Below are positions 6,503 to 30,851 of a stretch of 64,000 nucleotides of DNA, piece after piece. This DNA is from Candidatus Falkowella caecavicola (GTDB taxonomy: Bacteria; Bacillota; Clostridia; Oscillospirales; Ruminococcaceae). Both the position numbers and the translations under genes were made by a program. The notes under the pieces were generated by a model that was not told the DNA's origin, searched no databases, and was given only the letters and a program-made list of their open reading frames with translations. Within the stretch, counting starts at the first letter, position 1. Every line of letters begins with the position of its first letter. The stretch spans positions 1-64,000 of the forward strand of contig CAJFUK010000053.1 in assembly GCA_904420125.1 (NCBI GenBank), written 5' to 3'.

Positions 6503-6751
6503 ATGGACTTGTTAGAATCCATTTCGTCCATCCTGCATTGTCAGTATATGTCAGATCTACATTACATTAAAATTACTCACGGGCAAGCTGATCAACTCCG
6601 TCAGCTGGAAGATAACCATTTCACATTATCTGATTGTCAGGATGCAGTTTGTTATATTTGCGGAGATGACGTACCCTGCACCAGCTTTCAGGAAGCCAAA
6701 CAAGTAATTATCCAACAGTTATTACGTGAAGAGCCGGAAACCCGTCAGTAA
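6503..6751 (+). CDS. Hypothetical small protein (82 aa), divergent from the XRE regulator and followed by a strong terminator.
   Basis: ORF with a plausible RBS (AAAGGGGAAG) and a terminator at 6762-6800. No recognisable domain. Confidence 0.4.
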   Translation: MDLLESISSILHCQYMSDLHYIKITHGQADQLRQLEDNHFTLSDCQDAVCYICGDDVPCTSFQEAKQVIIQQLLREEPETRQ

Positions 6752-6761
6752 AATAAAAAAA

Positions 6762-6800
6762 TAAAACCCCCGTGCGGTGTCAAACCGGACGGGGGTTTTA
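6762..6800 (+). terminator. Rho-independent terminator (CCCCCGTGCGGTGTCAAACCGGACGGGGG followed by TTTTATT).
   Basis: GC-rich hairpin plus T-tract read directly. Confidence 0.8.
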
Positions 6801-7054
6801 TTGCCTGAAAAGAAATTTCCGCCTATCTGCTGCCTGCCTTGCTGTTTCTTTCTGGCATAGCACAACAAAATCCATCATATTTCATAAGTTTATTTCACAA
6901 TCTTCTCTGTCTATAGTTGATTCCGATGGAAAAGTCTGATATAATAAAAATACAGCAAATTCAACAAAGAAAAAACAACATGCTGGAAGCCACAAACATT
7001 GGATTCCGCGCCGCGTCGAATCGTATATAACAGTTGCGGCAGAAAGGGGTTTTT

Positions 7055-7405
7055 ATGAATATTAAGGAAGTTGTCCGGATTTTGGATGCAGAGATTGTAT
7101 GTGGAGAAAATCTGGATTTTCATGTAAATACTGCTTGCGGAAGCGATATGATGAGCGATGTTCTGGCTTTTGTGAAAGACCAGTCGCTGTTGCTGACAGG
7201 GCTGGTTAATCCGCAGGTTATTCGGACTGCAGATATGATGGACATGCGGTGTATTGTTTTTGTCCGCGGTAAAACCCCCACAGAGGAAATGACTGCATTG
7301 GCACAGAAATTGGATATTATGCTTTTAAAGACACGTTATCGAATGTTTACAGCCTGCGGCCGCCTGTACCATGAAGGTCTGGGAGGAGGCTGCGATGAAA
7401 CATGA
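7055..7405 (+). CDS. DRTGG-domain protein, a putative hydrogenase-associated regulator component. Start placed at the internal ATG with an AAAGGGG RBS.
   Basis: Similarity of architecture to the second DRTGG ORF at 9182 (G.D.L...LL.TG...V....IVF pattern). It is the first gene of the sensory-hydrogenase cluster. Confidence 0.55.
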   Translation: MNIKEVVRILDAEIVCGENLDFHVNTACGSDMMSDVLAFVKDQSLLLTGLVNPQVIRTADMMDMRCIVFVRGKTPTEEMTALAQKLDIMLLKTRYRMFTACGRLYHEGLGGGCDET

Positions 7406-22250: not shown

Positions 22251-23486
22251 TTATACCGTTTCCCGCTCCGCAGAAAAAAGCGCCAGATCCGGACACCGGC
22301 CTTCCAGGTAAAGCTGCAGCAGCAACCGGCTTCCGATTTCTGCCTGTACCGCACGATTGACTCCAGCCGTATAATGCAGATAAATATTTTTGCGACCCGG
22401 CGCATAGCCGAAAACAGGCAGCGTATCTCCAGTTTTCGGCAGATAACCTGCATACCGGTATTCAGCTTCCAGTTTGGGAATGCCGCAGAACATTTCGGAA
22501 AGTTTCTGTTCCATTTCCTGATATCGTATATCAAACAGCCTGTTCATATGCAAAACCCTGGAGATTCTTCCTCTCTCTGACGCCAGCAGGCTTTCACCGC
22601 CGCAGATAAAAAGCCGCTTATCACGAGTAGAGCGGAGATAATAAGGCGTTTGGGTTTCCGCACGGATCACAGGGCAGTCTGTATAGCCTGGGAATGCCTC
22701 AACCGGCTTAGTAACCAGATAAAAGCTGGTTCGTTTTGAAGAAATTCCCCAGACATTTTTATTGGGTGCCAGCCCGGTAGCCAATATAGCTTTTTTAGCC
22801 CGTATTTTTCGGAAAGCCGTGGTTTCTGCAAACACACCGTCTCCCTCTTCAAATAGCGTCTGTACCGGCGTGTTTTCATAAATCCGAGCGCCTCGTTTTT
22901 CCGCCGCCGCGAGCAGTGCATGCATAAACAGATAGCTGTCTATCTCTCCGGCTAAGCCCTTAGATAAAATCCCCGCCTGCACCGGAAAGGAGAAGCGGTC
23001 CATCGCCGTATCCCGGTCAATGTAGGTTACGTCAAATCCGTTATGCCGGCGCATCAGGTATTCTGTATGAAACTGGTCTGCCTGTTCCGGTTTGTTGGTA
23101 TAATAAAATCCGTCCCGTCTGGTAAAACCCGCAGCCGGAAAAGAAAGCGCGAGGTTTTCCAGATTCCCGATGGCTTCCTGTTGCATTTTGTAGACCTGCA
23201 CCGCATTTTCCCGGCCAATCTGTTTCATCAGTCCGGAAAGATTGTTTTCCGTCTCATAAAGCAGTATCCCACCCGATAAAGCAGTTCCCCCATAACCCGC
23301 CGGATCGGTTCCAGCCAAAACCACGCTGACACCGGCATCCGCAAAGCGATAAGCCAGCAGCGCGGCTGAGAATCCGTTTCCAATAATGAGTACGTCGCAG
23401 CTCTCATCATAGGAAAGCCATGGGTAAATACAGGGCGCTGTCTGTATACTGGTGAAATATGGACGGCCGTTGATTAACTGGGACAT
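22251..23486 (-). CDS. FAD-dependent oxidoreductase (DAO-like). Start placed at the internal Met with an AAAGGAGGG RBS.
   Basis: N-terminal dinucleotide-binding motif VLIIGNGFSAALLA. Confidence 0.6.
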   Translation of the reverse strand: MSQLINGRPYFTSIQTAPCIYPWLSYDESCDVLIIGNGFSAALLAYRFADAGVSVVLAGTDPAGYGGTALSGGILLYETENNLSGLMKQIGRENAVQVYKMQQEAIGNLENLALSFPAAGFTRRDGFYYTNKPEQADQFHTEYLMRRHNGFDVTYIDRDTAMDRFSFPVQAGILSKGLAGEIDSYLFMHALLAAAEKRGARIYENTPVQTLFEEGDGVFAETTAFRKIRAKKAILATGLAPNKNVWGISSKRTSFYLVTKPVEAFPGYTDCPVIRAETQTPYYLRSTRDKRLFICGGESLLASERGRISRVLHMNRLFDIRYQEMEQKLSEMFCGIPKLEAEYRYAGYLPKTGDTLPVFGYAPGRKNIYLHYTAGVNRAVQAEIGSRLLLQLYLEGRCPDLALFSAERETV

Positions 23487-23607
23487 AAGCCCCCTCCTTT
23501 GCATGTCCTGTCTCTTTTCTTTCAGTATACGCCTGTCCAACAATTTTTATGCAGTTGTCACACACGTCCGCCGTTTATTTTTCCCGGAAGGCGGGATCAT
23601 CCGGACC

Positions 23608-24360
23608 CTATCCCAACTCCGACAGGAACAAAGCGTCGAGTTTTGCCCAATCACGGGGTGCTTCCGCAGGGAGTACAGCGATGCGCTGCTTGATGTCGGC
23701 AATGCTTGTATCCAGATACCGATTGAGAGAATCGATCCGGTCAATTTGCTGTACCTCCGGCGCATGGATTTTCATTTCCAGCAGATCTTCCACAATCACC
23801 CGCAGCCTGCCATCCAGCTGGCTGTCCATTAATTCCGTAAACAGCATGGGCGGCGGCGTGCCCTTCTCCAGAATCCAACGGCAGGCCAGAACGGGCCGTA
23901 GTACGTAAAAGTATTTCTTTGCCTTGACCCGATCGCCGTGCAGATATTCCCGGTTATTGTTTTCCGCCATGCTGATGTAATGCCATAAGCTGTTTTTGGA
24001 AGAAAAATACTCCTGCATCAAAGACTTAAACCGGCTGGCAAACGGGCTGGTCTGATAGATGATCGGCGAAGAAAACCATTCAAAAACAGTCGGGTTTGAT
24101 TTGTGCAGCAGCCGCAGGGTTTTGTTAAGATCCCAGCCGTTGATATCAAGCAGGTCATGGATGGGATATTCGAGGACATCCCTGGATTTTTCCAGCTTGA
24201 GATAGTATTCCCGCGGACGAACATAGATAAAACGCACATCGTAGTCGCTGTCAGGAGAAGCGAATCCCCATGCGCGGCTGCCGGATTCTACAGCAAGAAG
24301 GATGCGGCAGTTTTCCTTTCTTTCAATTTCACACAGCTTTTTTTGAATTTCTGCTTTCAT
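23608..24360 (-). CDS. Pol-beta-superfamily nucleotidyltransferase (RlaP/COG3541-like 'predicted nucleotidyltransferase'), encoded immediately downstream of rtcB.
   Basis: NTase motif GSRAWGFASPDSDYDV (GS...DxD). Operon position with rtcB. Confidence 0.6.
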   Translation of the reverse strand: MKAEIQKKLCEIERKENCRILLAVESGSRAWGFASPDSDYDVRFIYVRPREYYLKLEKSRDVLEYPIHDLLDINGWDLNKTLRLLHKSNPTVFEWFSSPIIYQTSPFASRFKSLMQEYFSSKNSLWHYISMAENNNREYLHGDRVKAKKYFYVLRPVLACRWILEKGTPPPMLFTELMDSQLDGRLRVIVEDLLEMKIHAPEVQQIDRIDSLNRYLDTSIADIKQRIAVLPAEAPRDWAKLDALFLSELG

Positions 24361-24423
24361 GTTTCCCCTTCTTTCTTGTTAGTAAGATGACGACGCCATA
24401 TGTCTGCCTGTCCCCACCCCGTT

Positions 24424-25626
24424 TTAGTCTGCCGCCTTGTAATTGTAAACGGGTCGAATATGTTTGACAATTTCGGCGGTCGGTCCGATCTGACGGACAA
24501 TTTCATCCATCCGTTTATAAGCCATAGGCGACTCGTCCAGGGTATCGGGCAGTACACAGGTTGTATAAATACCCTCCATCTCCGCTTTGAACGCATCCAT
24601 CGTCAGGGATTGGAACGCCATCCTGCGGCTCATTAGCCGGCCTGCGCCATGCGGCGCGGAATAATTCCAATCTTCATTGCCCTTTCCCAGACAAATCAGG
24701 CTGCCATCGCGCATGTTGATGGGAATCAGCAGCTTTTCTCCTTTCCCGGCCGAAACGCTTCCTTTGCGCAGGATCATCGTCTCGGTATCTATATAGTTAT
24801 GAATGGTCGTAAATTCTTCTCTGCGTCCAAGCCCCAGCTTTGTCAGGATCACATCGGTCATGGCCTTCCGATTAAGCACGGCAAAATGCTGGATGATCTT
24901 CATGTCGTGAATATAGTCTTCAAACAGTTGTCCCTCCACATAGGCCAAATCCTTTGGAATCTCAATCCGGTGTTCCTTTTTCAGCTTTTGGATCGTGGGC
25001 TGGATCTCCTGAAAACGGCCCTGCTCTTTAAGCGTCTGAATCACCTTCTGGATCTGATGGCTGGCACCGCCCCAAAGCGCACGCCTTCCCTCATCCTGAT
25101 AAAAATTTGCCACTTCCGTGCCGAGATGACGGCTGCCGGAGTGAATAATCAGATAAAGCATGCCGTCGTCGTCCCGATCCACTTCAATAAAATGGTTGCC
25201 GCCGCCCAACGTGCCGATGCTGTGCCTGGCCCGGTCCAGATTGATCTGATCCGCACAGCGCAGCGCAGGCAGATCGATCTCCTGGTTCAGCGGATGTATC
25301 TCTGTGCGTACATTCCGTCCGGAAGGGACGTTTTCGCGGATTACCCGGTCCAATGCTTCAAAGTCAATCGTTTTCTCTTCCAGCAGGACTGTCTCCATGC
25401 CGCAGCCAATGTCCACTCCTACCATGCCGGGCACGATTTTGTCTTTAATGGTCATTGTAGTACCAATGGTGCATCCCTTGCCGGCATGTACGTCCGGCAT
25501 AATACGGATTCTGGAACCGGCAAATGCCTCCTGGTCACATACATCCTGAATCTGCTGCGCAGCAGCATCTTCCAGTGTCTCGCAGAAGCACTTGGCGGTG
25601 TTGTATAAACCTTCAATCTGGATCAT
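24424..25626 (-). CDS. rtcB: RNA-splicing ligase RtcB (3'-phosphate/2',3'-cyclic phosphate RNA ligase).
   Basis: RtcB signature motifs read in the translation: PDVHAGKGCTIG, GGGNHFIE, SGSRHLG, HGAGR. Confidence 0.9.
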   Translation of the reverse strand: MIQIEGLYNTAKCFCETLEDAAAQQIQDVCDQEAFAGSRIRIMPDVHAGKGCTIGTTMTIKDKIVPGMVGVDIGCGMETVLLEEKTIDFEALDRVIRENVPSGRNVRTEIHPLNQEIDLPALRCADQINLDRARHSIGTLGGGNHFIEVDRDDDGMLYLIIHSGSRHLGTEVANFYQDEGRRALWGGASHQIQKVIQTLKEQGRFQEIQPTIQKLKKEHRIEIPKDLAYVEGQLFEDYIHDMKIIQHFAVLNRKAMTDVILTKLGLGRREEFTTIHNYIDTETMILRKGSVSAGKGEKLLIPINMRDGSLICLGKGNEDWNYSAPHGAGRLMSRRMAFQSLTMDAFKAEMEGIYTTCVLPDTLDESPMAYKRMDEIVRQIGPTAEIVKHIRPVYNYKAAD

Positions 25627-25683
25627 CTGAAATTCCCCCTTGAAAAACCGAATGTTCTGTATACTCTGTATGTCTCATCCTTT

Positions 25684-26787
25684 TCAGGATGCCCGGCCTT
25701 TTAAAAGGCTACTGAGCTGTGTCAGTATGTCGCCTGTACCGTTTAAACTGATGTTCCCGACATTTTCACAGATCCTTTCGATGTATTCCATCTCTTTCAG
25801 GCGCAAAAGCGTCTGGTTTTCATCCATCAGTTTTGCCGTATTCAGCAGACTCCGGGTAGAGGCCACCTCTTCGCGGCGGGTAATCACGTTGGCCTGCGCT
25901 CTTTTTTCAGCTACAAGGACCGTATTCATGATATCACGGATCTCACCTGGCAGGATAATATCTTTAACGCCTCCATCGGCAATCTCCAGATAAAACGCAG
26001 CTGCTTTCTCTCTGCACCGTGCCAGTACATATGCGGAGATCTGCTCTTTATTTTCCAGAATTTCATCCAGCGTCTGCTTGCCGACATACTCCCGCATGGC
26101 AAGTTGCACGGCAACATGCAGCTGCTCTGCGTAATCGTCGATTTCTGTCAGCACCTTCACATAATCGGTAATCCGGTAGGTGCATACAAAGTTTATGCGC
26201 AGGCTGACTTTGTCTCTGATCAGGATCTCCTGACCGGTGATGTTCATCTGCGTCAGTCGGATATCCACAAAACTGACGTCAATCCGGATGTTGTTTTTCC
26301 AGAAATAATAGGTTCCGGCATCCAGCACCCGTTCCAGCTTCTGATTAAAATAAAGCCTGGCTTTCTGATATTCCGCCACCTGGACCTTGGTATAGAAACT
26401 GGCGGGCAGCATCTCGAAAATGTAATCAGGAACCTCCGGAGAAACCAGCGGGCTGGAGATATCGACCAGTTGAAAACGGTGTTGCTGTAATCCGTTCCAG
26501 AAGGCATATTTGCCCTTGCTCAGTGCGCTGCAGAACTTACCGTCGACAAAATGCAGCGCCAGCTGCTGGTCTGCCACTTCCACAACGGTGGTCTGCCGTG
26601 CAATTTCTGTTTTTTTGAGCAGGATATCCAGCGACGCTCTACTGGAATACAACGGTTCCTCTACGGCAAGGACCTCAATCTCGCGCCCGCCAAAACAATA
26701 GTATTTCCCAGTGCCGAGCAGCTTGACAAAACGGCCGTTTTGAAACAGCAGTCCCTTCTGATTTTCGTTGATTGTAATGGTTTTCAT
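25684..26787 (-). CDS. SPFH/band-7 (stomatin/slipin-like) domain protein with an N-terminal extension of about 150 aa. First gene of the SPFH-rtcB-NTase operon.
   Basis: C-terminal SPFH-like region. GGAGG RBS. 57-bp gap to rtcB. Confidence 0.65.
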   Translation of the reverse strand: MKTITINENQKGLLFQNGRFVKLLGTGKYYCFGGREIEVLAVEEPLYSSRASLDILLKKTEIARQTTVVEVADQQLALHFVDGKFCSALSKGKYAFWNGLQQHRFQLVDISSPLVSPEVPDYIFEMLPASFYTKVQVAEYQKARLYFNQKLERVLDAGTYYFWKNNIRIDVSFVDIRLTQMNITGQEILIRDKVSLRINFVCTYRITDYVKVLTEIDDYAEQLHVAVQLAMREYVGKQTLDEILENKEQISAYVLARCREKAAAFYLEIADGGVKDIILPGEIRDIMNTVLVAEKRAQANVITRREEVASTRSLLNTAKLMDENQTLLRLKEMEYIERICENVGNISLNGTGDILTQLSSLLKGRAS

Positions 26788-27085
26788 ATGTATAATCCTC
26801 CTTCAAGGTAAATTGTCGGTAGCACTTTCCCAAATGAACGGCGCACGGCCGATACGTTTAGTGCAGCAGTTCGGGCGGCGGAAAGTCCATACTTCTGGCC
26901 GGCCGTATGCATACACGGTATCCTGCATCGGGCAGGGTGCGGCGATCATTGCTTTACCGACGCTTCAGGACCGGCATTCCGCCGTACCCGTCGCACAAAG
27001 GGTCAAGCGAGCGGGAAAATGCAGATGATGAGCAGTTCAGAATATGAACCGCGGTTTAGCCGTTTCCGGCAATACCAAATCCACT

Positions 27086-27200
27086 TGGCCACATGTAGCA
27101 TGTGGGCAGGATTCGAACCTGCGATTATTTGGGGAGTCGAACCCCGTCGCGTACCTGCGATTGCCCTGGGCTGCATTGTGCAGCTTCATGCAGTGTCCTT
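27086..27200 (-). ncRNA. Candidate tRNA-like non-coding RNA element. Two consecutive stem-loops carry the tRNA TΨC-arm consensus (ACGGGGTTCGACTCCCC and GCAGGTTCGAATCCTGC on the minus strand). No complete cloverleaf could be built by hand, and no anticodon arm or acceptor/CCA end was found.
   Basis: GGTTCGAnTCC motifs within 5-bp stems in a roughly 540-bp non-coding region (26790-27330) directly upstream of the SPFH-rtcB operon. Only short, overlapping ORFs without RBS sit here. Confidence 0.3.
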
Positions 27201-27311
27201 TGGCATACGCTCTGGAAACTCCTCGCGCACCGCTGTGAAAAATGTCAGTCACAAGCATTTTGGACCCTGCAAATAGATCATAGCAAATCTTTCCTCTATA
27301 TTCACGGAAAA

Positions 27312-27358
27312 AAAGTTGCGAACTCTTTTTCAGAGTTCGCAACTTGACTGTTTTTTTA
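27312..27358. terminator. Bidirectional rho-independent terminator (AGTTGCGAACTC-ttttTC-AGAGTTCGCAACT flanked by T-runs). It overlaps the last codons of the WYL gene.
   Basis: Perfect 12-bp stem. TTTTTTT follows on both strands. Confidence 0.75.
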
Positions 27359-28241
27359 AACGTTCCCGTAACAATTCAATAAAATGATCCGGGGATATCA
27401 CCTGAATCATGGGGCCAAATGAAAGGACGCGAATCAACAGTTCGGTTTCGTCATCCTTCTCATAGCGCAGCGTAACCCGGTATTCATACTCGCTCAGCCG
27501 GACAGTTTCTTTTTCAAAATGGGAAAAATGAAGCAGCGCGCGTTCCAGCGTATTTCGTTCATCCTGTAAAATAAACGTCAGTGTTCTACACCTCGGCTGC
27601 GGCTCATGGAATCCGCCCATATCTGTCTGTTCCAGTAAATCGCAATGCTGAATACGGGCCATGTTGATGATATACCGTTTCCCTTTGCCCACGGCCAGTA
27701 TACGGAATTTATCGTCCTTTTCCGAATATTCCAGCCGGTAAGGCATGCAGACGACGCAGCAGGGGGCTGTCCTGCCCTGATAACGCAGACGTATGCTGCG
27801 CCGTTCCTTTACAGCCTGCAACACAAACCGGAATACTTCCCTGTAGACTGCATCCCCATAGGGATCTCCGTCCAGATACTGGTCAAAGTATACGATATCA
27901 TCCAGGTTAAAAAGCGGCTCTGTATCCTCAAGCCCGTTCATATCAGGCGCAAACAGTGCGATTCTGGCATCCTGCAACAGTGTTTTCAACCAGCGCTTCT
28001 GGAGAGAAGTCAGCGGCATGGACGGTGGATGTTGTATAGGCGTCGTAAGGTCGTTTTTCAGAAGCGGCCATTTTTTCCGGAGCGCAGCAGGGATCGAAAG
28101 ACTGCTTTCGGCAAAAGCTTTTTCCCGAATGATTTGATCGAGCTTATCACCGGTCAGCGTATGTTCCGCCGCCTCCTTCAGGATAGCCGCCACAGTGTTA
28201 AAATAACTGCTGTATATCTCGCTAAACAGCGTCGTCCTCAC
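27330..28241 (-). CDS. WYL-domain transcriptional regulator (HTH-WYL-C-terminal extension architecture), downstream member of an overlapping pair.
   Basis: WYL-like core P.RLEY......FRILA.......R.....ARI. It overlaps the upstream WYL gene by 20 bp. Confidence 0.6.
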   Translation of the reverse strand: MRTTLFSEIYSSYFNTVAAILKEAAEHTLTGDKLDQIIREKAFAESSLSIPAALRKKWPLLKNDLTTPIQHPPSMPLTSLQKRWLKTLLQDARIALFAPDMNGLEDTEPLFNLDDIVYFDQYLDGDPYGDAVYREVFRFVLQAVKERRSIRLRYQGRTAPCCVVCMPYRLEYSEKDDKFRILAVGKGKRYIINMARIQHCDLLEQTDMGGFHEPQPRCRTLTFILQDERNTLERALLHFSHFEKETVRLSEYEYRVTLRYEKDDETELLIRVLSFGPMIQVISPDHFIELLRERLKKQSSCEL

Positions 28242-29463
28242 CTCCGTACATCTGCCGCAAACGCTCCAGATCCGCGTAAAATCTGTCTACAACCATCTGA
28301 TTACTGCACCGAAGCTCTGTAATCCGTCCGATAAAAGTCCGGATCCAGGGCAGCAGTTCCGCAGCGTCGTACACATCCGCCGCAAACTGCCAGGTATGCG
28401 CATCGAGCTGTGTAACCGTTCCATTTCTTTTCTCCCGCTGCAGGCGCTGTGGGATGTGCGCTTCCCCTTCCCCCACACAAACAGTCATCTCTATATGTTC
28501 CACCCCGTGCACCGTACTGGTGGATACGCCCCAAAGGTACTTTCTGAAACGGGTATAACACGCCATATAATCATCGTGCTCGCCATCCACCGCGCCGGGC
28601 GTTACCTGGCAGATTGCGTCCAGCCGGTAAAAGGTGATAGATTTTCTGCCATAATGCCAACCAAGCAAATAACGCCGCCCGCCCTGTACGCTTGCATAAA
28701 TTTTCAATGGATATACCACCCGCCGCAGCTCCTTATGGCTGTGCTGGCTTCGGAGTACAAGCGTTACTGCACGATGCTCCCGCATAGCTGTCAAGAGGTC
28801 AAGCAGCACCTGACTATCCAGTGCGTGAAGGATATAATGGTGTTTAAATCCGAAATACGATGGAGGAACATCAGCCTTATCCAGCAGGAAAGACCCGATC
28901 ACACCTGCCGGATTTTCTTCCGAAAAGAAAGCGACTGCGTCCATCCATGAGTCAAGGTTCACAGTGTCCGCGGACAAATGATAACGAACTTCCCGCCCAT
29001 TTCTCTCCGCGGTTAAAAGGCCAAGATTTTCATATTCTTTCAGTTTTTTTCGTACTGTTGATTCATCCAGGCTGAATGCGTCGTCAAAATGAGAGAGATA
29101 GTTATTTTCAATCCGTTCCACAATTTCGCGGACTGTCAGGGAACATGGATCCGCCACAATATCCAAAATAAAAAAGTGGAGCGCGATATCCTTGTCCGTA
29201 AAGCTCTTAGCCTTGAAAGACTGATAGAGCGGATTGTACCGGATTGCCCGGCTGTCGACTGAAAGAAAAAGCCTTTTTCCGTTGGCGTCCTGCCAAAACG
29301 ACATATAATCTCCCAGCCAGCTTTCAATTCTGCGGCGTTCATTATCATAGCTGCGGGCGCTTTTGGCATCATACTCCTCGCGGCTTTTAAAACCATATAC
29401 ATAGAACTGCCGCATATAATCCCGAATGCGCTCATGGTCTTTGATCAGTTCGCTGAATGCCAC
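28222..29463 (-). CDS. HTH-WYL-domain transcriptional regulator (PafB/PafC-like architecture), upstream member of the pair.
   Basis: N-terminal winged-HTH-like segment and WYL core (RRYLLGWHYGRKSITFYRLDAI). Confidence 0.7.
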   Translation of the reverse strand: MAFSELIKDHERIRDYMRQFYVYGFKSREEYDAKSARSYDNERRRIESWLGDYMSFWQDANGKRLFLSVDSRAIRYNPLYQSFKAKSFTDKDIALHFFILDIVADPCSLTVREIVERIENNYLSHFDDAFSLDESTVRKKLKEYENLGLLTAERNGREVRYHLSADTVNLDSWMDAVAFFSEENPAGVIGSFLLDKADVPPSYFGFKHHYILHALDSQVLLDLLTAMREHRAVTLVLRSQHSHKELRRVVYPLKIYASVQGGRRYLLGWHYGRKSITFYRLDAICQVTPGAVDGEHDDYMACYTRFRKYLWGVSTSTVHGVEHIEMTVCVGEGEAHIPQRLQREKRNGTVTQLDAHTWQFAADVYDAAELLPWIRTFIGRITELRCSNQMVVDRFYADLERLRQMYGGEDDAV

Positions 29464-29696
29464 CAGCCTCTCCCCCGTCCCGTCTGTTCTGCATGACAGC
29501 AGACAGCATCAATATTATCAAAATCATATCATACCCGCTTTATTTTTTCAAGGATCCGCCCGCAAGCCGCTTCTTCCCGTCCCTTTTTCTTTCATATGGT
29601 ACCCCATCCCTATTTCTGTTGTTTCCTTCCTGAATATCCGATGTCCCAAGTACATGAAACCCGGGGCGTTACCGTCCAGGAAAACCGCCCATTTTC

Positions 29697-30194
29697 CTAA
29701 CAGAACCAGGATTTATGCTTGATAATAAAATGATAATTGAGTTCTTCCAAATCATCCGGTTGCCTGTAAAATTCCCGGTCGCATGCAGAAAGAATTTGAT
29801 CGGCCTGGTCAGTCATCACATGATCAAGAAATTCCTCACGCTGTATTTTGTCAACAGGTATCTTTTCATTCAAAGCACAAATCGCTTTCCGGCAAATAGC
29901 GGCTGTTTTTTCTGCGCCGATTGCTTTAAAGGAGGCAACCAGGTCGGCGGAAATATCGCCGTAAGCATTATAAAAGTATTGGATAAATCCTCCATTGTTC
30001 ACTTCCGCTTCCAGTTGCAGCGTCAGATAAACCGTTCGTTCCGGAGTGGAAAGAATAGGAAGGTTAGATCCGTTATCACTTTTTCTGCATAACCAGCTGT
30101 TGACTGCTATTAAAAAATCTTCTTTATTTTGTATGTTCCAAACATCCCGGATATCAATTCCCAAGAATTTTTTTATTTCGTTGTTATGCGGCAT
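29697..30194 (-). CDS. DUF4375 / DMP19-like (DNA-mimic family) protein. Tentative.
   Basis: NNGGFIQYFYNAYGD motif remembered from DMP19-family proteins. No search possible. Confidence 0.35.
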   Translation of the reverse strand: MPHNNEIKKFLGIDIRDVWNIQNKEDFLIAVNSWLCRKSDNGSNLPILSTPERTVYLTLQLEAEVNNGGFIQYFYNAYGDISADLVASFKAIGAEKTAAICRKAICALNEKIPVDKIQREEFLDHVMTDQADQILSACDREFYRQPDDLEELNYHFIIKHKSWFC

Positions 30195-30775: not shown

Positions 30776-30851
30776 TGGTGGAGATAAGCGGGATCGAACC
30801 GCTGGCCTCTTGAATGCCATTCAAGCGCTCTCCCAGCTGAGCTATACCCCC
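30776..30851 (-). tRNA. tRNA-Ala (anticodon GGC) with encoded CCA and a G3:U70 identity pair. A terminator hairpin lies immediately downstream (30730-30775).
   Basis: Reverse complement gives GGGGGTATAGCTCAGCTGGGAGAGCGCTTGAATGGCATTCAAGAGGCCAGCGGTTCGATCCCGCTTATCTCCACCA. D, anticodon and T arms were folded manually. Confidence 0.85.

Follow-up and report, generated by a model that had tools for sequence, protein, structure and literature searches.

The window analysed here, a 64,000-nucleotide (nt) stretch of contig CAJFUK010000053.1 from Candidatus Falkowella caecavicola, carries on its minus strand two regulator genes, WYL1 and WYL2, followed by a structured non-coding region and by genes for an SPFH/Band-7 protein, the RNA ligase RtcB and the nucleotidyltransferase RlaP (Table 1). 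We consider it rather likely that this locus is a Band-7(SPFH)/tRNA-like-RNA/RtcB/RlaP RNA-repair system, controlled by the WYL proteins and using its leader RNA as the partner of the SPFH protein. The locus belongs to an already predicted class of RNA-repair systems and its gene combination is not new. What is possibly new is the extended leader RNA, above all a 130-nt element that we call domain B.

An initial annotation, made from the window alone, had read the locus as a module for RNA repair that includes a tRNA-mimic RNA. This reading is supported by protein domains, by synteny across 80 loci and by RNA covariation. The open reading frames (ORFs) of the five minus-strand genes lie where they had been placed. 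Their proposed identities also stand, with Pfam supporting RlaP, RtcB, Band_7 and WYL (the Pfam scan covered seven genes, from 22251 to 30194), and with a PADLOC profile and a DriD/PafBC fold supporting the second WYL protein. The RtcB translation contains DxHxGxGC, GGGNHF, HSGSRHLG and SAPHGAGR, which we take to be RtcB signatures, and the G-S...DxD motif in the RlaP translation is presumably the motif of that family.

We scanned for homologues of the SPFH protein, taking one genome per species, and obtained 80 related loci. By record title these come from Oscillospiraceae, Lachnospiraceae, Acutalibacteraceae, Ruminococcus, Christensenellaceae and Erysipelotrichaceae, and they include a cultured carrier, Oscillibacter valericigenes Sjm18-20 (locus L007). 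Counting for each comparison the loci with enough flanking sequence on the relevant side, the WYL1-WYL2 pair is found upstream of the SPFH gene in 48 of 57 loci (45 co-oriented, 3 divergent), domain-B RNA upstream of it in 73 of 74, and RtcB downstream in 47 of 63. RlaP is present downstream in 3 of 56 loci, making it a rare component in this lineage. From these counts, the constant core consists of the WYL pair, the RNA and the SPFH gene, while RtcB is usual and RlaP optional. The conservation across Clostridia on which the first reading depended is therefore evident, as gene order and RNA are repeated in dozens of species, and the arrangement of the genes with the RNA is not due to chance.

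The gap between WYL2 and the SPFH gene is 542 bp long (26788-27329). When the 520 nt preceding SPFH are aligned across loci, conserved blocks appear throughout, and no minus-strand terminator is predicted between 27313 and 26787. We predict that the gap as a whole, beyond its tRNA-like part, is a conserved structured RNA. Near its 5' end, the second of two hairpins (H2) is 100% paired in 49 sequences, and its R-Y pair occurs as AU in 23, as GC in 22 and as CG in 3. A variable stretch follows, and then the circularly permuted tRNA mimic, in which 88.7% of cells are paired compared to 29-46% when slid, with compensatory changes in 13 of 20 pairs.

Conservation and covariation across loci thus bear out the tRNA-like element that had been noticed in the non-coding gap, although the detectors are silent in the window: neither ARAGORN nor Rfam at gathering score calls a tRNA (RF00005) in 26788-27329. 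The sole Rfam hint is YrlA (RF02553; 16.7 bits, E value 1.9, gathering score 69); this match aligns to model positions 24-84 in the same arm order. Detection is better in some other loci. ARAGORN calls a tRNA in L012, L024, L031, L032 and L066, and the orthologous element of L066 scores 40.3 bits, above the gathering threshold of the Rfam tRNA family. Many sister loci have an anticodon-like arm with a 7-nt loop before the T-arm, an arm that is missing from the window, where a second T-arm-like hairpin occupies the position. Examples of the sister-locus arms are found at ~5290-5312 in L002, 4185-4261 in L012, 6674-6753 in L024, 6632-6711 in L031 and 6669-6740 in L066. The triplets in these loops are GUC (6), GUA (2), GUU (2), GUG (1), UUG (1) and UUU (2), a small sample of related sequences; U33-G34-U35 is kept and position 36 varies. 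GUN and Lys UUU are the anticodon targets of colicin E5-type and PrrC-type nucleases, respectively.

Domain B contains an invariant internal loop formed by GGAUACCG and CUnAA, as well as a CCAAAAG..CUUUCCGC feature. RNAalifold finds compensatory changes in 31 of 34 pairs. In a comparison with controls, 90.4% of cells are paired, against 63% for shuffled and 33-44% for slid alignments, and double (compensatory) changes are seen in 30 of 32 pairs. A covariance model (R1), run on 81 sources, detects exactly one copy in 74 of them, including seven loci that were outside model building. There is no match to domain B in Rfam 15, even at an E value of 10. We found no mention of the 5' hairpins or of domain B in the literature, where Burroughs & Aravind 2016 is represented by the papers that cite it. 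It should be noted that in one locus (L010, ~6704-6963) an insertion of ~100 nt after GGAUACCG seems to split domain B, and the model score there is 30.5 bits. Pairing of the 5' UGCAAGG with CCUUGC of domain B was considered and rejected; there is no covariation, and CCCUG often occurs together with CAAGG.

Upstream of the leader, an intrinsic terminator of the WYL operon overlaps the elements of the next promoter. In the terminator hairpin, the last codons of WYL2 (..SSCEL and the stop codon, 27330-27345) supply the left arm; they are complementary to a conserved promoter element (27313-27324), and the right arm is part of the upstream element of that promoter. Since the end of WYL2 pairs with the promoter element, one stretch of DNA is at once coding sequence, terminator and probable operator, and the C-terminal consensus of WYL2, QKxCxL, may be constrained by this overlap. 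The upstream element, AGTTCGCAACTTTTTTTCCGTGA, is built from the right arm and the T-run of the hairpin and occurs once in the window; a 21-nt degenerate form of it has exactly one copy in 40 of the 80 loci. Loci whose WYL genes are missing or divergent keep AGTTCGCAACTTTTTTTCCGTGA without the left arm, indicating that it is a promoter or operator element and more than an arm of a terminator. About 18 nt beyond AGTTCGCAACTTTTTTTCCGTGA, the locus alignments show a conserved TGgTAnAAT-N6-TGCAAGG, and we predict a transcription start near 27270.

For WYL1, 34 orthologues are at 43-62% identity. Besides its WYL domain, this regulator shows a weak PaaX/ArsR-type helix-turn-helix (HTH) match and weak ArsR/SmtB and PafB/PafC profile matches in the PDB. 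WYL2, which has more than 5700 homologues, falls just short of the Pfam WCX cutoff, but its residues 130-297 match the PADLOC WYL(+WCX) model (E value 5e-11), and among its orthologues WCX is recognised in 27 of 33 and WYL in 4 of 33. An AlphaFold (AF2) model of WYL2 (predicted local distance difference test score 74) gives full-length Foldseek matches to DriD, PafBC, CapW and BrxR (E values 6e-9 to 1e-4), the nearest solved folds being DriD (6e-9) and PafBC (9e-9). The N-terminal HTH of WYL2 is visible at the fold level only, in a low-confidence part of the model. Profile match, orthologues and predicted structure together mark WYL2 as a genuine WYL regulator. Direct sequence similarity of WYL1 and WYL2 to PafBC and DriD is negligible to marginal (PDB E values 0.2-0.8), and the two proteins resemble one another weakly in profile-profile comparison, in the WYL region (E value 0.006).

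The overlap that the initial annotation had reported between two HTH-WYL genes is real in the window and in the orthologues. It measures 20 nt with the GTG start of WYL2, 8 nt with a CTG start, and 4 nt in most orthologues, and it implies translational coupling. The CTG at 28229 is another candidate start, because no spacing separates the GGAGG at 28242-28246 from the GTG at 28241. A database copy of WYL2 (P0121; 287 residues, 100% identical) begins 16 residues later than the window ORF; orthologues keep residues upstream of the P0121 start, so that annotation is probably too short. The proposal that a PafBC-like WYL pair fills the regulator slot likewise agrees with the DriD/PafBC fold and with the linkage to the SPFH operon counted above. 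Upstream of WYL1, a comparison of more than 40 loci revealed no conserved operator. An autoregulatory copy of the candidate operator at that site was considered and rejected, as none is conserved and the window contains no further copy.

With more than 7800 homologues, the SPFH protein is one of a large family of ~367-residue "slipin" proteins. A triple N-terminal beta-repeat precedes its SPFH domain, which is followed by a long C-terminal helix, and it has no transmembrane or hydrophobic segment (maximum Kyte-Doolittle 19-residue mean 0.9). In lacking a membrane anchor and in having the triple beta-repeat, it differs from stomatin, HflK/C, prohibitin and flotillin. Structure matches indicate a fold resembling that of cage-forming SPFH proteins. 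Against major vault protein the model has a low TM-score (0.22-0.24), and its C-terminal half is of low confidence. Pseudomonas homologues of RlaP add one or two nucleoside monophosphates to RNA 3'-OH ends, and RlaP homologues contribute to restoring tRNA function after repair (PMC12776372).

Two claims of the initial annotation did not hold. The combination had been taken for an undescribed one, and an SPFH gene as first cistron for unusual. According to a bioRxiv paper on YrlA structure (10.1101/312249), some bacteria encode RtcB beside a Band-7 protein and a predicted tRNA-like RNA (b7a-tRNA), a prediction credited there to Burroughs & Aravind 2016 (NAR), so that the SPFH gene is a defining trait of the system. 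The same source states that YrlA occasionally adjoins a Band-7 protein and that b7a-tRNA had no validation. Burroughs & Aravind 2016 is also where RlaP was named for its association with RNA ligases (PMC12776372), and later papers of the Aravind group cite that work for WYL transcription factors as sensors of cyclic-ended RNA and regulators of RNA repair (PMC9503650, PMC7824862). In Anabaena, deletion of the repressor TrcR derepresses rtcB together with a slipin gene, and the repression is reported to be relieved under antibiotic-induced translational stress (PMC10272220).

Compared with the Band-7/b7a-tRNA/RtcB system as represented in those citing sources, the window shares a Band-7 gene adjoining rtcB, a tRNA-like RNA beside the Band-7 gene, and RlaP. 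However, b7a-tRNA is said there to "strongly resemble an authentic tRNA", whereas the window element is permuted, fails the tRNA detectors and sits inside a ~480-nt leader that also contains 5' hairpins and a covarying domain of 130 nt. The Salmonella rsr-yrlBA-rtcBA operon is similar in that an RtcB operon encodes structured RNAs and has a dedicated sensor-regulator next door, and Salmonella YrlA has the arm order of the mimic (T-arm, closed acceptor-like stem, D-arm). In the window, SPFH takes the place of Ro/TROVE, with no TROVE domain in the seven scanned genes. RtcA, a member of both the Salmonella operon and canonical Rtc, was not found in the same seven genes (22251-30194), and RlaP is present. 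A further difference from canonical Rtc is that a WYL pair and a sigma-70-type extended -10 promoter replace the CARF-domain RtcR and sigma-54.

PafBC of actinobacteria and DriD of Caulobacter, both solved on RNA polymerase according to the structure entry titles, share with the window proteins an HTH-WYL-WCX fold (the HTH region of WYL2 being of low confidence) and a candidate site at, or replacing, the -35 of an extended -10 promoter. PafB and PafC are also two paralogous subunits encoded in tandem by overlapping genes, an arrangement that the WYL pair shows in 45 loci. In contrast to PafBC and DriD, WYL1 has an extra N-terminal region of ~100 residues, and the target is an RNA-repair operon rather than DNA-damage genes.

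The regulator position can be compared with that of a more distant relative. On the Citrobacter freundii plasmid NZ_CP151862.1 (locus L166, 2960-6913), a nucleotidyltransferase gene follows the gene of a distant slipin homologue (33% identity). Upstream of the slipin gene are a divergent rtcR, a sigma-54-like promoter and an RNA in which a UGGGUUCGAUUCCCA T-arm hairpin was identified by eye. No domain B, tRNA or Rfam family was detected in this locus, and it has no adjoining RtcB. Records of E. coli and Burkholderia also contain slipin genes of this kind. With RtcR in this proteobacterial slipin-nucleotidyltransferase relative and a WYL pair in the window, regulators have been exchanged between lineages, in keeping with the earlier suggestion that WYL proteins occupy the slot of RtcR.

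On the reading we favour, the locus would work as follows. The overlapping genes would supply WYL1 and WYL2 in a fixed ratio for a PafBC/DriD-like heterodimer, as fold and gene arrangement suggest. This dimer would bind AGTTCGCAACTTTTTTTCCGTGA, a conserved site, at the -35 of the next promoter. By analogy with other WYL proteins, binding of a damage signal by the WYL domains, probably RNA fragments and possibly single-stranded DNA, may turn the promoter on. The predicted transcript would consist of the ~480-nt leader, in which covariation supports two 5' hairpins, the permuted tRNA mimic and the 130-nt rod, followed by SPFH, rtcB and rlaP. The leader, or pieces processed from it, is the most likely RNA partner of a soluble SPFH oligomer, and the resulting scaffold may recruit broken tRNA or rRNA, in parallel to the Ro/Y-RNA of rsr-yrlBA-rtcBA. 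RtcB would then join 2',3'-cyclic-phosphate or 3'-phosphate ends to 5'-OH ends, and RlaP would restore one or two lost 3' nucleotides, activities that are established for homologues.

Several observations weigh against this reading. In about a quarter of the related loci, SPFH and the RNA occur without an adjoining RtcB, suggesting that the SPFH-RNA core may act beyond ligation; in those loci the genes downstream of SPFH are unrelated. The fixed spacing of ~35 nt between domain B and the start codon also fits a cis-acting role. The start site, the processing, the binding of RNA to protein and of WYL proteins to DNA, and the WYL ligand are inferred from sequence. Finally, the solved WYL relatives DriD, PafBC and CapW are bound to or responsive to single-stranded DNA and not RNA (in part according to structure entry titles).

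The spacing bears on the possibility that the leader is mainly a cis-acting regulatory RNA, a riboswitch-like element or decoy sensor that alters the translation or stability of SPFH-rtcB, for instance because the tRNA mimic is cut by an invading anticodon nuclease or is bound by a ligand or protein. In most loci 30-37 nt separate the end of domain B from the first start codon, including those with an extra ORF ahead of SPFH; there is no terminator between the RNA and the genes, and the anticodon-like loops of orthologues are biased towards the ribotoxin targets GUN and UUU. However, the Shine-Dalgarno sequence has an intermediate predicted accessibility that varies inconsistently across 64 loci (median unpaired probability 0.42), a search for an alternative-pairing switch revealed none, and the window RNA itself lacks an anticodon-like arm. 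Moreover, the Y RNAs of Salmonella rsr-yrlBA-rtcBA are encoded in the operon too, yet they are RNA-protein partners. We regard a mainly cis-acting leader as unlikely, though it is the most serious of the competing explanations; a cis-acting role and a role as RNA partner are mutually compatible.

Two other explanations carry less weight. The locus could be a WYL-regulated anti-phage or conflict system, of an effector or abortive-infection type, in which RtcB and RlaP modify invader nucleic acids or counter a linked toxin, as the defence-controlling regulators BrxR and CapW are among the fold matches, the PADLOC WYL models are CRISPR-associated, and a patchy distribution with regulator swapping suggests mobility. 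Against this, PADLOC finds no defence protein among SPFH, RtcB and RlaP, homologues of RtcB and RlaP are repair enzymes, Pfam reveals no nuclease or toxin in the module, and the flanking genes are not conserved. Phages offer no support either: a tblastn search of phage records with the SPFH protein gave no match, and although 85 pattern matches to domain B were obtained in viral contigs, none of the 80 returned as loci fit the covariance model, indicating chance matches. Such a system is in our view quite improbable. The silence of ARAGORN and Rfam in the window gap would also be expected if the tRNA-like element were a decayed tRNA gene or the remnant of an integration site and the remaining gap an ordinary spacer. 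Yet in more than 70 loci the element and both flanking domains keep their place and their fold, compensatory changes are abundant, and the arm order is permuted consistently, so that we give this explanation hardly any credence.

Returning to the RNA-repair reading, a bolder form of it is possible but tentative. The leader may be an undescribed large RNA class, comprising the 5' hairpins, the permuted tRNA mimic and domain B, with one copy for each soluble, cage-forming SPFH protein. Vault particles contain vault RNA, and the two components here might likewise form a vault-like cytoplasmic ribonucleoprotein that catches damaged tRNA or rRNA for RtcB and RlaP. The WYL heterodimer might in this case sense RNA damage, not DNA damage, and the UGUN arm of sister loci might serve as bait or decoy for colicin-E5-type nucleases.

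RtcB repair is widespread, but outside enterobacteria little is understood of its natural substrates, its cofactors and the signals that it answers to. The SPFH/RNA/RtcB cassette is very common in gut Clostridia, and we found no experimental studies of it in the literature. This analysis defines a candidate operator of 23 bp to which a heterodimeric WYL regulator may bind, a predicted start of transcription, and two RNA domains supported by covariation, one of which is absent from Rfam. These bear on the function of soluble SPFH proteins, on the sensing of RNA damage by WYL proteins and on the repeated recruitment of tRNA mimics by RNA-repair operons.

Table 1. Features of the RNA-repair locus, in window coordinates.
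Feature	Position	Strand	Description
RlaP	23608-24360	-	Pol-beta nucleotidyltransferase; Pfam PF10127, E 2e-92, full length
RtcB	24424-25626	-	3'-phosphate/5'-OH RNA ligase; Pfam PF01139, E 2.3e-60
SPFH/Band-7 ("slipin") protein	25684-26787	-	Pfam Band_7, E 6e-23
Leader / non-coding RNA	26788-27270	-	predicted structured leader of the SPFH-rtcB-rlaP operon, ~480 nt
SPFH Shine-Dalgarno	26796-26804	-	GAAGGAGGA, ~30 nt after domain B
Domain B	26824-26954	-	130-nt irregular rod-like hairpin; model R1 91.3 bits
tRNA mimic	27059-27122	-	circularly permuted
tRNA mimic, GNRA hairpin	27059-27070	-	
tRNA mimic, D-arm-like hairpin	27075-27088	-	GG loop
tRNA mimic, closed acceptor-like hairpin	27089-27105	-	
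tRNA mimic, T-arm	27106-27122	-	
Extra T-arm-like hairpin	27131-27145	-	GGGGUUCGACUCCCC; anticodon-like arm at this position in other loci
5' hairpins H1 and H2	27202-27256	-	H2 = GGUGCRC-GA-GGN..NCC-AAA-GYGUAUGCC
Extended -10 and start region	27265-27285	-	TGcTATGAT 27277-27285; TGCAGGG 27265-27271
Promoter-upstream element	27302-27324	-	AGTTCGCAACTTTTTTTCCGTGA; 23 bp, overlaps -35 region; candidate site of the WYL pair
WYL-operon intrinsic terminator	27313-27345	-	14-bp hairpin and T-run
WYL2	27330-28241	-	~300-residue divergent WYL-WCX regulator; Pfam WCX only, 23.4 bits vs cutoff 23.9
WYL2 start candidates		-	GTG 28241; CTG 28229; GTG ~28193 (from P0121, minus 16 codons)
WYL1	28222-29463	-	413-residue regulator; Pfam WYL, E 1.6e-9; PADLOC WYL, E 1.8e-13
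WYL1 domains			N-terminal domain; ArsR/PaaX-like winged HTH, residues ~112-182; WYL, ~217-290; WCX-like C-terminus
Promoter-like site of WYL1-WYL2	29523-29551	-	TTGAAA-17-TATGAT with TG; consensus match only

The surroundings of the module vary. Just upstream of the WYL pair and on the same strand are a DMP19-like gene (29697-30194) and a tRNA-Ala(GGC) gene (30776-30851), the latter not conserved with the module in other loci. On the other side, rlaP is separated by 64 nt from the next same-strand gene, which encodes a DAO-family FAD oxidoreductase (22251-23543). As no terminator is predicted in this interval, read-through is possible. Neither the DMP19-like nor the FAD oxidoreductase flank is kept with the module in other loci.

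The related loci also differ in composition. Locus L001 (6415-9370; SPFH 70% and RtcB 72% identity), among the closest relatives that the scan of genomes yielded, has the promoter element, the leader RNA, SPFH and RtcB but no WYL pair within 7 kb upstream, so its regulators are encoded elsewhere or absent. In seven loci (L022, 6237-6983; L005, L020, L027, L050, L054 and L058) an ORF of ~248 residues without a Pfam match lies between domain B and SPFH, and domain B is then directly upstream of that ORF. In L012, an Rfam group II intron domain (D1-D4-3, 34.7 bits) is found at 7011-7235, just downstream of RtcB on the opposite strand.

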